Origin: a phage
Assembly: GCA_020279385.1 (NCBI GenBank)
Contig: GCA_020279385.1_4762.2
Length of the DNA stretch: 64,000 bases
Direction: 5' to 3' (one strand)
This document shows positions 29,610-35,230 of the stretch, piece after piece. The first letter of the stretch is position 1. Each line of letters begins with the position of its first letter. The notes beneath the pieces are model-generated. The model was given only the letters and a program-made list of their open reading frames with translations, searched no databases and was not told where the DNA came from. The position numbers and the translations under genes are program-made.

Positions 29610-29851
29610 AAAGAAAATTAATTAAACGCAATAAGGAATTTCTTAATAACTGCATTAAGGCCGCTAATGGTTGGCCTTTGTTCCTCTTCCTTTATGATTG
29701 GTATTCTAAACAATCGGTAGAGGAAACACGACACTATAAGAAGATCAGAAAAGAATCATATACAAAACAAGGCCGCATTAACGGACTTTACTTAATGTGG
29801 CACGGCAAAGAACCTTCTAAAATCTGTGTTGGATTAAAGGGGCGTATATGA
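29606..29851 (+). CDS. hypothetical basic protein (81 aa)
   Basis: GTG start overlapping previous stop; Lys/Arg-rich; uncertain. Confidence 0.35.
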   Translation: MKRKLIKRNKEFLNNCIKAANGWPLFLFLYDWYSKQSVEETRHYKKIRKESYTKQGRINGLYLMWHGKEPSKICVGLKGRI

Positions 29852-30564
29852 AACAAAAATTAATATTCTGCAACTTTGACGGATCGGGGATAATGGGGCT
29901 AGAATGGGCTAAAGCAGGTCATAAGGTGATCTGCTTTAATGCTGACGATGGCGACCACGGCACATACAAAAAGTATAATACCCGATTTGAACATCCAAAC
30001 ATTACCTATGTAAACACATGGATTGATTTGAACTGGCTGGAAAGAGCAATGGACCTTGAATGGGGGAAACCGGATATTATCTTTGCATTCCCACCGTGCA
30101 CCAATTTAGCTGTTAGTGGCGCTGCACACTTTGAACGAAAGAAACGAGAACAAGGACCATTGATTCAAGTTCATGATGTAAGGGCAGCTAAAATAACCGC
30201 TTATTTGGGTGAATGGCTAGGAGTTCCCTACATGATAGAGAATCCTGTAAGCGTTATCTCTAGCATGTGGCGTAAGCCTGATTATATGTTCCATCCGTGG
30301 GAATATGGTGGTTATTTGCCGGAAGATGATAAGCATCCTACGTTTCCTGAGTATATTGCCGCCCGTGATATGTACCCGAAAAAGACTTGCTTATGGACCG
30401 GACAAGGCTTTATGATGCCAGAAAAGAAACCTTTGCAGATTAATAAAGGGTACAGTAAACAGCATTCTAAGCTAGGCGGGAAAGGAACGAAAACAAAGAC
30501 TATAAGGTCACTTACCCCGCGAGGATTCGCAAAGGCAGTATTTGAAGCCAATAAGGATCTATGA
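29848..30564 (+). CDS. C5-cytosine methyltransferase-like protein (compact, no obvious target-recognition domain)
   Basis: 238 aa; motif I-like IFCNFDGSGIMG, motif IV-like FPPCTNLAVSG (Pro-Cys), motif VI-like ENPVSV, motif X-like RSLTPRGFAKAVF. Confidence 0.5.
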   Translation: MKQKLIFCNFDGSGIMGLEWAKAGHKVICFNADDGDHGTYKKYNTRFEHPNITYVNTWIDLNWLERAMDLEWGKPDIIFAFPPCTNLAVSGAAHFERKKREQGPLIQVHDVRAAKITAYLGEWLGVPYMIENPVSVISSMWRKPDYMFHPWEYGGYLPEDDKHPTFPEYIAARDMYPKKTCLWTGQGFMMPEKKPLQINKGYSKQHSKLGGKGTKTKTIRSLTPRGFAKAVFEANKDL

Positions 30565-30893
30565 TGAGATTGTTTAAGTATTCGCTAACGTCAAATTACG
30601 ATAAACAAGGTCATTGCATCCGTTGCCCTGATTGTCATAGCCATAACATCGAAAGCAAGATCACCGATCATATTGATGGACTTTGGTCGCCAGCAAGTGA
30701 AATAGAATACTATTGCTCTGATTGTGGAATTGTAGTAGCATATTGGGCATACGGATCATATGATCCATACTTCCAGATGGGAGAGCGTTCAATCCCTGCG
30801 CTCATCTGGAGAATTAAGAACAATATCCGCCATTCATGGGATGAGTTCTTAAAAGATATTGATTTACGTGATGATCCATTCAGGAGACTATAA
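30561..30893 (+). CDS. Zn-ribbon protein (110 aa)
   Basis: CIRCPDCHSH ... CSDCG; two CxxC pairs; translationally coupled to flanking genes. Confidence 0.5.
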   Translation: MMRLFKYSLTSNYDKQGHCIRCPDCHSHNIESKITDHIDGLWSPASEIEYYCSDCGIVVAYWAYGSYDPYFQMGERSIPALIWRIKNNIRHSWDEFLKDIDLRDDPFRRL

Positions 30894-30894
30894 C

Positions 30895-31413
30895 ATGAAC
30901 CGTTTAACGCCTAAACGCCGCTACTATACCAATACTAAAAACTTTGTTATCTCTGTTTACGAAGCATGGTTAGAAGATGGCTATATCAACATGAACCCAG
31001 ATTATCAGCGTCCTTTAGTATGGGACACCGAAAACAAACGTATGTTTATTGAAAACCTGATTAATGATTTTCCGGTTGGTGCTATCGCAATGGCTAAGAT
31101 TGATGATGGCTCTCGCTATGAGATCGAAATCGTGGACGGTAAACAGCGTTTAAACGCAATATTCTCCTTTATGAAGGATGAGTTTAGCATTGCCGGTAAT
31201 GATGATTCTATGTTGTATTACAGTGATTTTACGCCAGCAGAAAAGCGACGTTTCCGAAATCTCGGACTACCCGCGATCATGATGGAAGAGAGCACACGAG
31301 AAGACCGATTAGAGTATTTCTACAAAACAAACTTTTTCGGTGTGCCTCAATCGGAAGAACATCGCCAGCATGTGATTGCCCTATTGCAAGATGAGCAATT
31401 AAAAAATAACTAA
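30895..31413 (+). CDS. DUF262 / ParB-like domain protein (DGQQR-type motif)
   Basis: ~173 aa; NPDYQRPLVW and EIVDGKQRLNAIFSF resemble the DUF262 DGQQR signature; ATG 30895 with RBS CAGGAGAC. Confidence 0.55.
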   Translation: MNRLTPKRRYYTNTKNFVISVYEAWLEDGYINMNPDYQRPLVWDTENKRMFIENLINDFPVGAIAMAKIDDGSRYEIEIVDGKQRLNAIFSFMKDEFSIAGNDDSMLYYSDFTPAEKRRFRNLGLPAIMMEESTREDRLEYFYKTNFFGVPQSEEHRQHVIALLQDEQLKNN

Positions 31414-31420
31414 AAAGTTG

Positions 31421-31449
31421 TTGACAGGGGATCGGTGATCCCCTATAAT
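31421..31449 (+). promoter_or_regulatory. PeSL-like promoter cassette (TTGACA-17-TATAAT)
   Basis: Spacer GGGGATCGGTGATCCCC identical to the 25785 cassette. Confidence 0.75.
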
Positions 31450-31485: not shown

Positions 31486-31698
31486 ATGGCTAACATCGAA
31501 ATCATCATTACCGACGTAACTTATGACCGCATTAACGAAATCGGTACTGCATTACTGGAAGATGGAACAACTCGTACCATCAACTACGCAGAATACGTTG
31601 AAATGCGTGGTTGTATTAAACGAGTAGGAAAATATACCCTGATTGAAAAAGACTATTCAGGATACACCTTAGAGCAATTGCTTGATGGTGCATTATAA
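31486..31698 (+). CDS. hypothetical protein (70 aa)
   Basis: ATG 31486 after cassette; starts MANIE like the 29358 ORF; track start 31435 lies in the promoter. Confidence 0.5.
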   Translation: MANIEIIITDVTYDRINEIGTALLEDGTTRTINYAEYVEMRGCIKRVGKYTLIEKDYSGYTLEQLLDGAL

Positions 31699-31704
31699 TA
31701 AAAA

Positions 31705-31728
31705 GGGGGCGTTAAGCCCCGTTTTCAT
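31705..31728 (+). terminator. rho-independent terminator
   Basis: GGGGGC-GTTAA-GCCCC hairpin followed by GTTTTCAT. Confidence 0.7.
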
Positions 31729-31766
31729 AAATATAGGTTTATAGGTTATCAACTAGAGGATATAAA

Positions 31767-33818
31767 ATGTTTAACTTAGAAATCGACGATCTAATGATTG
31801 AATCTTTCGAGAAATGGCTGTTGACGGAAGAGGAAGAAAACTTTGGCAGTATTGCTCCTGTACAGTGCTTAAAGCCTAAGCAGAATCCTAAACAGCTTTT
31901 TGCAGTACAGACACGCGATAAAGATGTGATTGTCCGTCTTTGCAACTTCACCAACAAAACACCTAAAATCATTCGTATGGGCGACAAGACCGCACATGTT
32001 GTACTGTGCGAAATGAACAAAAGCGGTCGTATTGTACAGCTTAAAAATGGTCTAGGCGATAACCCGATTGCAGTCATGGCAAGTGCTTTTGATGTGGTTA
32101 TGGAAACAGCCCGTAAAGCGCAATTAGACGCTGTTATGTTCCGTTTTAACGTATCCCGCATGAAAGGTAAGACCGAACTGATTAAGCGCGTTATAGAGCG
32201 TTTGGTGCGTCGTACACCGAAGTTTGAAGTATTCCAGCAGGAAGTAATGACCAGCAAAAAGATCGCTTTAGTTGTTGTCAAGCGTCGCGGGATAGCGATT
32301 GATAAGATTAAAGGGATTAAACTTGATGAATCCTTGTTCACTAAAGTAGAAAGTGATTTAGGTGATCGCTGGGTATCTAAGGCTACTGGTGAATCTCTGA
32401 CTAAAGATGAAGCGTATGCGGCTAGTCTTGTGTCAGAAGAAGAACGAAACGCGGAAGCAGAACAACGCGTAGCGGCTAAATCTCGTTTGACTAAAGAAGA
32501 AATGCTGAAAACTCAAGCGACCTATAACAGCGACTATGTGAATCATCCAGAAAAAATTAATCTTAAACCGGAAGAAGATATCACCGAAGCCGAACCTAAG
32601 AAACAGTTTAATACTCTGATTGACCGTCAAGCCTTAGAACGTTCAACCGCCCGTTCTCTGAATGACTGGACAAGTGATATTATCACTCGCTATGGTTTCA
32701 TGCGTACTATTTTTGAAAGCGAAGCCGATGCAAAATACGCAGTAAGCGAACTGGTAAAAGTTCAGGATCAATATGATCCGTTGTCTGCGGAAGTTATCGC
32801 AGCATCAATCAAACGCTTAAAAGAAATCATGAGCGAGGAAGTATTCGAAAACAAGATCACCGCCCTGGCAATGGATCGAGTAGACCAGTCTATGCCAGCA
32901 GATGTAAAAGCTGAAATGCTGCGTAGTCATATCACCCAGATTAAAACCGATGCCCTACGTAATGTTGCTTCCGGTATGTTTGAAGCAATTGCTAGCAACA
33001 TGGGTGAAATGATGGCAGATATTGATCTTGATCTGCCAGGTGCGGAAGGTTTTGTGTTGAGCGAATATGCGGATGCAGCATACATCAATATGAACAACTT
33101 CCTAACCGACCGTAAGCTGGAAGAATTTGATGGTATCGCAGATCCAGAAGAATTGGTCAAGATGTGCGATGCACTGGATAATGCCTTCTCTAACTATGGT
33201 GTTAAACTTGATCCGGGTACTATTCTGTATCGTGGTATGGACTTCCGGTCTCAAATGTGGGAAACTGCACGTAAGCAAAAAGCGTTTTACTTTAAAAACT
33301 ATGTGAGCACTTCCCTTGCACCTAACATTTTTGGCGGCTGGAATGCAAACGTGGCTAGTGCCGTTGCTGGTGTTGATTCTATGGCTGGCTCTCGCGGTGA
33401 AGGTGGCGCTAATGTTGCTTTCTCCATTGCTGGCGCGGAAAACATCCCTGTATTGCCAGTAGGTAACAAAGCATTTGCTTACAAAGAATGCGAGATTTTA
33501 CTTCCTCGCGGTGTTGTGTTATCCTTTGATACGGTAACTCGTGCTACGGCATCGACGGATTCACAAGAAACTTATTACATTGAGGCACATATTATGAACA
33601 AAAATGAACTGGCAGCATTACAAGAATCTGGCGAGATGATCGCGGACGGTGATGCATTCATCCGTGAAGGTGTTGTTAAACCTGCTTCTGACCTGTCTTT
33701 CTCCAGCTTTATTACCGAAGCTAAAACCGAACGTAAGAAAGCAGATAAGGCAACTCTACGTCAGCTTATCGCTGATCTGGTATCTGTAGACGCAATGCCA
33801 GATAAATTTAAAATGTAA
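31767..33818 (+). CDS. alt: ADP-ribosyltransferase Alt
   Basis: 683 aa (T4 Alt ~682 aa); C-terminal R-S-ExE ART triad (LYRGMDF, YVSTSL, KECEILLPRG); position next to ligase region and gene 54 as in T4. Confidence 0.75.
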   Translation: MFNLEIDDLMIESFEKWLLTEEEENFGSIAPVQCLKPKQNPKQLFAVQTRDKDVIVRLCNFTNKTPKIIRMGDKTAHVVLCEMNKSGRIVQLKNGLGDNPIAVMASAFDVVMETARKAQLDAVMFRFNVSRMKGKTELIKRVIERLVRRTPKFEVFQQEVMTSKKIALVVVKRRGIAIDKIKGIKLDESLFTKVESDLGDRWVSKATGESLTKDEAYAASLVSEEERNAEAEQRVAAKSRLTKEEMLKTQATYNSDYVNHPEKINLKPEEDITEAEPKKQFNTLIDRQALERSTARSLNDWTSDIITRYGFMRTIFESEADAKYAVSELVKVQDQYDPLSAEVIAASIKRLKEIMSEEVFENKITALAMDRVDQSMPADVKAEMLRSHITQIKTDALRNVASGMFEAIASNMGEMMADIDLDLPGAEGFVLSEYADAAYINMNNFLTDRKLEEFDGIADPEELVKMCDALDNAFSNYGVKLDPGTILYRGMDFRSQMWETARKQKAFYFKNYVSTSLAPNIFGGWNANVASAVAGVDSMAGSRGEGGANVAFSIAGAENIPVLPVGNKAFAYKECEILLPRGVVLSFDTVTRATASTDSQETYYIEAHIMNKNELAALQESGEMIADGDAFIREGVVKPASDLSFSSFITEAKTERKKADKATLRQLIADLVSVDAMPDKFKM

Positions 33819-33835
33819 TTTTTAAGAAATAATGG

Positions 33836-33864
33836 TTGACTCAAACGGGGACTAGTTTTATACT
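33836..33864 (+). promoter_or_regulatory. sigma70-type promoter (TTGACT-17-TATACT); its hairpin may also terminate alt
   Basis: Imperfect hairpin CGGGGACTAG...CTAGCCCCG followed by TTTTCTGTT. Confidence 0.55.
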
Positions 33865-33896
33865 AGCCCCGTTTTCTGTTATATGGGAGGTTTAAA

Positions 33897-34721
33897 ATGT
33901 TCAAACAATTACAGGATTTTCGTCTTTCAGAAGAATCACGCGAATCAATGATGGAACGTATGGACAATTATATTGAAACATATGACATTGAGGGGATTAA
34001 TGGTTACATGATCACTGAGATGATCAGCGATCAGATTAACTTTGATGATTATGTGAAGGTTATCCGCTTCCTTGAGCGTGAGACACAAGATTATGGATTT
34101 GTCAAGAAAATCATTAATGTGATGTATGAAGTACACTCCGAAGACTTTGGAGATAATGTATTCAAACATTACAAACATAACAACATAACCCCAGCAGAAT
34201 ATAATGCAATCTGTGATTATGTATCTGAACAATACGAATGGGTAAATGGTGCTCTCTTAGGGGAAGAAGACATGACCGATGAGATATCAGAGATTGTCGA
34301 TTTGATGGATTGCGTCATGGATAAAACCGAAAAGTTAAACGGTACTCTTTATCGCGGTCAACATCTTGACATTCAGACAATAGAGCGCATCATTGAAGAT
34401 AAGGAGTTTACCTTTAAAAACTTTGTATCGACCAGCATGACACCGATCATCTTTGGAGGATGGCTATCAAACAGCACTAGCCTTTATTGTGAGAATCGAT
34501 ATGAATCAATGACCGGAAAGATGCAACATTCTTGTAATGTATCATGGGTAATTGACGTAAAAGATCATAAAGGTTTTGTTGTTGGGTCAATTGCATGGAA
34601 CCCTTGCGAATGTGAAGTAATTTTACCGCGCGGGACTTGCGTCAAGGTAAACGACGTAGTAGAATCTTTCGGCGATGAGAATCGTAGACAATTTACAATT
34701 TTCGGTGAGGTGACTAAATGA
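33897..34721 (+). CDS. Alt/Mod-like ADP-ribosyltransferase (second ART paralog)
   Basis: 274 aa; R-S-ExE triad (TLYRGQHL, FVSTSMTPIIFGGW, CECEVILPRG) parallels Alt C-terminus. Confidence 0.65.
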   Translation: MFKQLQDFRLSEESRESMMERMDNYIETYDIEGINGYMITEMISDQINFDDYVKVIRFLERETQDYGFVKKIINVMYEVHSEDFGDNVFKHYKHNNITPAEYNAICDYVSEQYEWVNGALLGEEDMTDEISEIVDLMDCVMDKTEKLNGTLYRGQHLDIQTIERIIEDKEFTFKNFVSTSMTPIIFGGWLSNSTSLYCENRYESMTGKMQHSCNVSWVIDVKDHKGFVVGSIAWNPCECEVILPRGTCVKVNDVVESFGDENRRQFTIFGEVTK

Positions 34722-35203
34722 AAATGATTAAACTGATTGGTCTTGCGGCTGCATTCATGCTTACTGGTTGTGCCAACATGGAAGCTATGATGAATGCTAA
34801 ATCAGATCCGGTTTTCTTGCTTCGTGAATGTAAAGCAGCATATGCAAGTGATGATCAGATCGAATCGTGCTTTATTTCTAAAATGGAACGTCGAGACGTG
34901 GATCGCGTTAAAGTTGGTTTAGCACCACAAACGCAGATGTTCAAGGATGCAATCAAAGAAGCGCGGGAAGAGAAAGCACAAGAAGAAAAGAAGCGTCAAG
35001 AAGAATTGCGCAAGCAGAAAGAAGAGTCTATACAACTTGAGAAGATGAAAGCACGGGATCGCTGTATTATCATGTCTGACATGCAGATAGAGCAAGAAGC
35101 AAGAAAGGCAGCATTAAACGGTGATTATGACCGTTATGAAGAACTTAACAGCGCAGAATTTCAAACTAAGGCACTAAAATATTGCAATGATTTAGCAAAA
35201 TAA
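34718..35203 (+). CDS. predicted lipoprotein with charged coiled-coil region
   Basis: 161 aa; signal peptide + lipobox MKMIKLIGLAAAFMLTGC; KEAREEKAQEEKKRQEELRKQKEE helical segment. Confidence 0.6.
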   Translation: MKMIKLIGLAAAFMLTGCANMEAMMNAKSDPVFLLRECKAAYASDDQIESCFISKMERRDVDRVKVGLAPQTQMFKDAIKEAREEKAQEEKKRQEELRKQKEESIQLEKMKARDRCIIMSDMQIEQEARKAALNGDYDRYEELNSAEFQTKALKYCNDLAK

Positions 35204-35206
35204 AAA

Positions 35207-35230
35207 GGCGGGGGATAATCCCCGCCTTTC
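35207..35230. terminator. bidirectional rho-independent terminator between convergent genes
   Basis: GGCGGGG-ATAAT-CCCCGCC hairpin flanked by A run on plus (T run for minus) and TTTCGCTT. Confidence 0.75.

Follow-up and report, generated by a model that had tools for sequence, protein, structure and literature searches.

The 64,000-nucleotide stretch of phage DNA analysed here (contig GCA_020279385.1_4762.2 of GenBank assembly GCA_020279385.1; below, the window) carries at positions 31767-35203 three adjacent genes, which encode a full-length homolog of the T4 ADP-ribosyltransferase (ART) Alt, a shorter ART of the same family, and a small putative lipoprotein. We propose, with rather better than even confidence, that they belong to two transcription units: a late unit for an Alt protein that would be packaged, and an early unit, driven by a regulatory element of the PeSL type, for the short ART together with a lipoprotein that would exclude other phages or mask a receptor. 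The core observation is already present in databases and in the literature, and in this respect the analysis mainly confirms existing annotation; new are the conserved division between late and early regulation, the strict linkage of the ART and lipoprotein genes, the recombination junctions within the lipoprotein gene, and the data on variability. All three open reading frames (ORFs) were found at exactly the coordinates given in a preliminary description of this DNA, and the features concerned are listed here.

31706-31734, plus strand: terminator hairpin and late-promoter-like motif, 5' of alt
31767-33818, plus strand: alt, 683 aa (RB49p184), with the ART domain at about residues 425-610
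33819-33896, plus strand: PeSL-type composite element, forming the spacer between alt and the short-ART gene
33897-34721, plus strand: predicted short Alt-family ADP-ribosyltransferase, 274 aa (RB49p183), a helical N-terminal part followed by the ART core
34718-35203, plus strand: putative lipoprotein gene, 161 aa (RB49p182; phrog_16112, function unknown)
34770-35203 (and L004 4501-5010 and L020 6001-6486 in two related loci): recombination junctions within the lipoprotein gene, that of phage Whisky at the lipobox, that of L020 after the N-lobe
35203-35230, no strand assigned: bidirectional terminator hairpin AAAGGCGGGGATAATCCCCGCCTTT, serving the ART-lipoprotein operon and the convergent gene 54 operon; a terminator is annotated in phage TB34

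A megablast search with positions 31767-35203 matched 59 phage records, each over at least 80% of the query and at 95-99% identity (among the 30 matches listed, at 100% coverage and 98.5-98.9% identity). All 59 are members of Krischvirus (RB49, phi1, JSE, GEC-3S and relatives) with E. coli or Shigella as hosts, and the window is a Krischvirus genome, from an RB49-like T4-type coliphage. The three ORFs correspond to RB49p184 (alt), RB49p183 (short ART) and RB49p182 (lipoprotein) of the RB49 reference record; the database label of RB49p183 is [quoted passage not shown], and RB49p182 is entered as hypothetical, with phage W115 labelling the same ORF "putative lipoprotein" and UniRef naming one homolog "Lipoprotein". 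In Nolan et al. (2006), RB49ORF183c, 44RRORF188c and T4 alt.-1/alt.-2 are given as paralogs produced by duplication of alt (PMC1524935). On the opposite strand, 3' of the lipoprotein gene, lie genes 54, 48 and 29 in T4-like order. Antisense ORFs within alt (for example 31739-32341, minus strand, 200 aa) are regarded as spurious.

The 683-aa protein has the architecture of a full-length Alt, with an N-terminal Tevenvirinae ADPRT region, an ART domain and a C-terminal tail whose ending (...MPDKFKM) is common to it and T4 Alt. It matches phrog_802 over the full length of that profile (E 2e-179, residues 16-683 covered) and T4 Alt at 27% identity over 695 columns (BLASTP, E 4e-61, aligned over 15-679), and its ART domain is recognized by Pfam PF03496 (37.3 bits, E 2.3e-9; gathering cutoff 23.4). 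The 274-aa protein scores higher against the same Pfam model (59.3 bits, E 4.3e-16), and aligns to phrog_802 at positions 330-602 of 674 only, so that, as the preliminary description had supposed, most of the Alt N-terminal region is missing: the protein is without the first approximately 330 residues of Alt and also without the conserved Alt C-terminal tail of approximately 90 residues. The R-S-ExE catalytic triad that had been reported for both proteins, with near-identical spacing, is literally present in each: R489 (LYRG), S514-T-S516 (YVSTS) and E574-x-E576 (KECEILLPRG) in Alt, and R153 (LYRG), S178-T-S180 (FVSTS) and E238-x-E240 (CECEVILPRG) in the short ART, the distances being the same in both (from R, 25 residues to S, and a further 60 residues to the first E). 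The catalytic glutamates thus survive careful alignment in both proteins, and R153, S178, T179, S180, E238 and E240 of the short ART are invariant in an alignment of nine sequences that are 24-84% identical. The model of the short ART is a confident ART structure with the expected fold, best matched by Tre1 (of the Tre1-Tri1 pair) and Lmo0066. Since an E-x-E motif in the R-S-E clade is taken to indicate arginine specificity, the short ART is predicted to be an arginine-specific mono-ADP-ribosyltransferase, and the two genes are, on the strength of these alignments, ART paralogs that both retain an intact triad.

Just after the STS motif, residues 186-198 of the short ART (window about 34452-34490) read FGGWLSNSTSLYCENRY, a segment that is near-invariant in orthologs down to 43% identity; residues 188-210 were modelled at a confidence (pLDDT) below 50. 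This segment may be a family-specific substrate-recognition loop.

The origin of the short ART can be placed within the Alt family. Its alignment to the catalytic region of T4 Alt (BLASTP, 31.5% identity over 181 aa, 88 bits, E 3e-23) is stronger than that to its neighbour (37% identity over 109 aa, 67 bits, E 1e-16 to 4e-16), and pairs of alt and short-ART genes occur in metagenomic relatives in which each member is only about 45% identical to the window copy (gp54 and gp48 being 81% identical there); both facts rule out a recent tandem copy of the resident alt, and because the pair is found in such distant relatives, the duplication is old. Of the preliminary description's term "Mod-like", only a sense of role can be kept. 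Comparison with T4 ModA gave a BLASTP E value of 4.6 and comparison with T4 ModB gave no match, and a separate ModB homolog (RB49p014, found with T4 ModB by tblastn at E 1.4e-7) adjoins srd in RB49 as in T4, which rules out membership of the Mod family; no modA is annotated in RB49. The protein is, as far as sequence comparison goes, the catalytic half of an Alt-family enzyme.

The early/late division is suggested by the elements that precede the two ART genes. Upstream of alt there is a terminator hairpin, GGGGCGTTAAGCCCC with a T-run (31706-31720), followed by CATAAATA (31727-31734), 33 nt 5' of the alt ATG; no sigma-70-like promoter was found between that terminator and alt. Within the window, the motif NATAAATA occurs 31-37 nt 5' of the start codons of gp18, gp22, gp23, gp24 and alt, and 55 nt 5' of that of gp20 (gene names were obtained by mapping window coordinates onto the RB49 record). 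Because the same arrangement is seen at gp18, gp22, gp23 and gp24, the motif in front of alt matches the late-promoter layout of this phage, and in the distant relative L010 the same hairpin is again followed, in front of alt, by a motif of this kind, AATAAATA. Late expression of alt, if correct, fits a packaged protein.

Motifs of this kind often differ from TATAAATA at the first base, as at the minus-strand sites 52846, 56688 and 63258 and at the plus-strand alt site (31726): the major capsid gene 23 and the portal gene 20 both have AATAAATA in front of them, alt has CATAAATA, and a 251-aa ORF that is probably gene 14 has GATAAATA, with a spacing to the ATG that falls within 31-37 nt.

The spacer between alt and the short-ART gene (33819-33896) is of a different kind. 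It contains an AT-rich stretch, a -35 box TTGACT (33836), a 17-nt spacer and a -10 box TATACT (to 33864), and a hairpin, GGGGACTAG..CTAGCCCC with GTTTTCT, that overlaps the promoter and is followed by the Shine-Dalgarno sequence GGGAGG and the ATG; the RNA fold of the spacer has an energy of -20.9 kcal/mol (z -2.6). No NATAAATA was found within 80 nt 5' of the short-ART ATG. The element is kept in five other lineages, whose short ARTs are 43-63% identical to the window copy: across them the -35 box, the -10 core and the T-run are invariant, 91.7% of the stem cells are paired, and three pairs show compensatory changes, a covariation that extends to lineages with a short ART only 43-48% identical. 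An AT-rich region, a sigma-70 consensus promoter and a stem-loop with G/C tracts are also what the published description of PeSL cassettes in RB49 and phi1 gives, and strong promoter activity as well as termination has been demonstrated for representative cassettes (PMC2839356; see also Arbiol et al. 2010; Comeau et al. 2014). We infer that alt is a late gene, and that the short-ART and lipoprotein genes form an early operon.

A side observation concerns the start of the short ART in L018, where the metagenome gene caller chose an ATG that lies within the PeSL hairpin (position 1530); judged by the conserved Shine-Dalgarno sequence and by the N-terminus MF..., the true start is 12 codons downstream.

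The lipoprotein ATG overlaps the stop codon of the short ART (ATGA), and the same tight junction is seen in L010, L014, L018, L019 and L020, an arrangement that indicates a translationally coupled operon. In every context that could be recovered, the lipoprotein gene lies 3' of the short ART, and it was found nowhere else. The encoded protein begins with MKMIKLIGLAAAFMLTGC, a signal sequence with a basic n-region (K2, K5), a 10-residue hydrophobic core and the lipobox L-T-G-C18. The clear lipobox (LTGC) and the charged helical region of which the preliminary description had spoken are both borne out, the former across the whole family. When judged by the pattern [LVI][ASTVI][GAS]C with the cysteine at position 15-35, in the style of PROSITE PS51257, 48 of 50 family members conform, and the two exceptions are a protein whose lipobox has N at position -2 and a gene call that is truncated. 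Nowhere is the family better conserved than in its signal peptide and lipobox, where L15, G17 and C18 are invariant. At the +2 position all members inspected have Ala or Ser, never Asp (the window protein has Ala); by the Lol rule of E. coli, lipoproteins with either residue there are sorted to the outer membrane, where the protein is accordingly predicted to reside. The aligned alleles all have the cysteines C38, C51, C116 and C156, and these four invariant residues suggest two periplasmic disulfides. An AlphaFold2 (AF2) model is all-helical (mean pLDDT 86), with a 62-residue helix (72-133) inside which residues 78-113 are 61% E/K/R and vary in length between alleles.

No informative match to this protein was found in Pfam, NCBIfam, PHROGs or PADLOC. 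In a profile scan with HMMER of 1.84 billion representative proteins there were 11 matches (nine of 155-174 aa, one 103-aa fragment, and one marginal 1252-aa protein), for none of which is a function known; all eight further family representatives that were retrieved carry the lipobox, and the three whose context was looked up lie 3' of a short ART or of a truncated upstream ORF consistent with one. The marginal 1252-aa protein (E 5e-5) and a marginal PADLOC match (E 0.005) are both probably compositional. A Foldseek search with the model found nothing below E 0.5 in the PDB, and only the protein's own family in BFVD. The family is phage-only, catalogued but orphan, and matched to no known fold.

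The gene encoding this protein is also the place where the locus varies. In 8 of the 59 isolates the lipoprotein is only about 30% identical to that of the window, while alt and the short ART are 97-100% identical; in the three of these eight that were examined, gp54, gp48 and gp29 fall to 87%, 76% and 53%. In phage Whisky the switch between alleles occurs exactly at the lipobox. Synonymous divergence (dS) from L020 is 0.20-0.24 in alt and the short ART, 0.2-0.36 in the signal peptide and N-lobe, and 0.8-1.6 in the rest of the lipoprotein gene and in genes 54, 48 and 29. The lipoprotein gene thus straddles recurrent recombination junctions between an early alt/ART block and a baseplate-hub block. 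The mature lipoprotein nevertheless diverges faster than any neighbour, gp29 included, with identities down to 24-38% against 76-87% for gp54 and gp48. The gene-wide ratio of nonsynonymous to synonymous divergence (dN/dS) is 0.12; this is a functional, fast-evolving gene under purifying selection. Positive selection on the lipoprotein is unsupported, given that ratio and given that the sharp drop in identity is largely a recombination junction.

The model that we favour can be set out as follows. The alt gene would be expressed late, and its 683-aa product, as for T4 Alt, would be packaged into the head and delivered into the host together with the DNA, there to modify host proteins, for example the RNA polymerase alpha subunit, by mono-ADP-ribosylation of arginines. 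The second unit would begin at the conserved terminator/early-promoter cassette (the PeSL) and yield two translationally coupled proteins. One, the 274-aa stand-alone Alt-type module, would be synthesised de novo in the cytoplasm at an early stage of infection, extending the range of host or phage targets beyond those hit by the injected Alt and the ModB homolog. The other would be exported by the Sec pathway, lipidated at C18 and sorted by the Lol system to the outer membrane, its mature part consisting of two disulfide-braced helical lobes joined through a charged spacer helix; there it would alter the envelope of the already infected cell, to keep out superinfecting phage or to mask a receptor, in the manner of T5 Llp and TraT.

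Several points weigh against this model. The timing of both units rests on promoter motifs only, and a literature search gave no expression, transcript-map, virion-proteome or enzymatic data for any Krischvirus. The N-terminus of the short ART, MFKQLQDFRLSE followed by E, holds an L-x-E (L10-S11-E12) that resembles the sites of the T4 prohead protease; the T4 capsid-targeting and gp21-cleavage sequence is MKTYQEFIAE, cut after its last residue. By eye, [LI]-x-E occurs within the first approximately 15 residues of each short-ART ortholog, the gene adjoins alt and is near virion genes, and in a published survey many phage ARTs are in packaging-associated contexts (PMC9503650). The short ART could on these grounds accompany Alt as another internal head protein that is packaged and then injected with the DNA, a reading that we nonetheless consider unlikely. 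Both Alt-specific parts, the N-terminal region and the conserved tail, are absent from it; [LI]-x-E is common in acidic helical proteins, with an estimated chance of about 0.2 per N-terminus; and conservation of the capsid-targeting sequence (CTS) has been reported only for IPII and IPIII (PMC9958956). The promoter evidence, a conserved sigma-70 promoter behind a terminator for the short ART and a late-like motif for alt, likewise points away from packaging, and the whole is consistent with a short ART that is non-packaged and Mod-like in role. That the gene might be a decaying, functionless remnant of a tandem alt duplication is scarcely credible: T4 does have N-terminal Alt fragments at the equivalent place, and Nolan et al. 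group RB49 ORF183 with them, but the short-ART frame is intact in all 59 isolates (at least 96.7% identical), comparison with a diverged relative gives a dN/dS of 0.05, even homologs only 24% identical keep the catalytic residues unchanged, and the gene has its own conserved promoter and a product with a confident ART model. The conservation data effectively refute pseudogene or remnant status.

For the lipoprotein, exclusion or modification of the envelope is the single most likely role, and a tentative one, holding about a third of our confidence. T5 Llp is an early-expressed receptor-blocking lipoprotein, and the F-plasmid TraT interferes with OmpA-specific phages. A tblastn search with T4 Imm and Sp (Spackle) gave no credible match in RB49 (record positions 100001-105006 being covered through the near-identical window); as no homolog of either is detectable there, an alternative exclusion device is conceivable. 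Against this role stand the facts that sequence and fold searches gave no relative of known function, that the gene-wide dN/dS is well below 1, with no sign of an arms race at that level, and that much of the apparent hypervariability comes down to recombination junctions inside the gene. Whisky, moreover, carries a lipoprotein allele different from that of RB49 and Cognac, yet the three share O-antigen/OmpA receptor use (PMC9569957); the same receptors despite different alleles speak against allele-specific receptor masking. Two other roles may be weighed beside exclusion. In all lineages examined the two genes are strictly inherited together and translationally coupled, which might point to a toxin-immunity-like pair, or to proteins that otherwise bind each other, on the pattern of Tre1-Tri1 or of Lmo0066 with its partner. 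We find this very improbable, since the downstream protein, with its conserved Sec/lipobox signal, leaves the cytoplasm while the ART lacks a signal peptide, the lipoprotein showed no ARH, macro or Tri1-like fold (Foldseek against PDB and BFVD), and a lipoprotein about 30% identical beside an ART 97-100% identical in the same phages is the opposite of what co-evolving partners would give; the lipoprotein cannot be a cytoplasmic immunity protein for the ART. Distinctly unlikely, too, is a part in lysis or its timing (spanin-like, or as a lysis-inhibition accessory) or in stabilising the envelope. A predicted outer-membrane anchor with a helix of approximately 60 residues could reach toward the peptidoglycan, loosely like Lpp or the spanins, and every database searched assigns the protein no function; the gene, however, sits behind an early promoter and is not grouped with t, rI or the endolysin, and the spanin pair pseT.2/pseT.3 is annotated elsewhere in RB49. 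The mature part of Rz1 is short and proline-rich, which that of this protein is not, and an o-spanin of the Rz1 type is ruled out, the spanin pair being elsewhere and the upstream partner here being an ART.

A bolder extension of the two-unit model, which we regard as a long shot, is that the co-inherited ART and lipoprotein are one early module that guards the infected cell on two fronts, with allele replacement reflecting specificity for the penetration machinery of the incoming phage, not for its receptor. Within the cell the ART would disable a factor of the host or of a rival phage; at the envelope the lipoprotein, as a new fold family, would block entry, its allele being replaced together with the tail-tube and hub genes gp54, gp48 and gp29.

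Upstream of the alt region, three overlapping early genes occupy window positions 29848-31413 (plus strand), with products that are a DNA methyltransferase-like protein (phrog_757; RB49p189), a 110-aa zinc-ribbon protein and a 172-184-aa GmrSD protein. The last has the GmrSD N-terminal (DUF262) domain only (Pfam PF03235, E 5e-20; PADLOC NsnA, E 1e-20), and by these matches it is evidently a phage-borne half of a type IV restriction/defence protein, which could act as a decoy or as a DNA-modification-sensing factor. Between these genes and alt, positions 31421-31449 (plus strand) hold a perfect sigma-70 consensus, TTGACA-17-TATAAT, with a hairpin GGGGATC..GATCCCC inside the spacer; this is another PeSL-type cassette, driving the small ORF at 31486-31698 (RB49p185).

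Alt, ModA and ModB of T4 are the classic case of viral reprogramming of a host via ADP-ribosylation, and ModB has recently been reported to attach RNA to proteins. RB49-like phages are frequent candidates for therapy, and their ART set differs from that of T4, comprising Alt, one Mod and a stand-alone Alt-type enzyme; the targets of the short ART, once identified, would show the flexibility of the takeover toolkit. If it is true that the lipoprotein excludes other phages, this would be relevant to the design of cocktails with RB49-like phages.

Compared with known exclusion lipoproteins (T5 Llp, phi80/N15 Cor, TraT), the window protein is alike in being a small lipoprotein of an invading element, predicted here, as for Llp, to be expressed from an early promoter; RB49-like phages have OmpA or O antigen as their receptors (PMC9569957). 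It differs in that searches showed no sequence or fold similarity to any of them, in being about twice the size of Llp, and in being all-helical, with four cysteines and an E/K/R-rich spacer helix; its gene is not adjacent to the receptor-binding protein gene. The regulatory element in front of the operon has the AT-rich stretch, the consensus-like sigma-70 promoter and the G/C stem-loop overlapping the -10 box of the PeSLs of RB49 and phi1, and is distinguished from them by dividing a late gene from an early operon and by a conservation much stronger than that of the flanking coding sequence.

The 683-aa protein is an end-to-end ortholog of T4 Alt, whose gene adjoins gene 54 as T4 alt does and has a late-promoter-like signal in front of it. 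The 274-aa protein has the catalytic module and triad in common with T4 Alt, while an early promoter of its own and the post-STS segment FGGWxxNSTSLYCENRY belong to the 274-aa family only. Two metagenome proteins, P0048 (415 aa) and P0049 (316 aa), are Alt-like and N-terminally shortened, and keep the Alt C-terminal tail (...YDGDxLxETG...MPxKF..), which is absent from the 274-aa ART; several different truncation forms of Alt therefore exist, and the tail might be tied to Alt-specific behaviour such as packaging. T4 ModA and ModB resemble the short ART in being small stand-alone R-S-E ARTs, presumably expressed from early promoters and possibly with the same kind of role, but there is no detectable sequence similarity, and the genomic position is different. 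Closer in position are T4 alt.-1/alt.-2 and ORF187c/188c of Aeromonas phage 44RR: a second alt-derived gene immediately 3' of alt recurs in T4-type phages. In T4 (L007 5817-6202) alt.-1 and alt.-2 are N-terminal fragments of a second Alt copy; alt.-1 begins MELITELFD..., like Alt, and alt.-2 matches residues 77-126 of the window Alt. Tandem duplication of alt followed by differential decay is thus recurrent in T4-type phages, as Nolan et al. (2006) also state, with T4 keeping short N-terminal fragments and the RB49-type copy keeping the catalytic half, under purifying selection.

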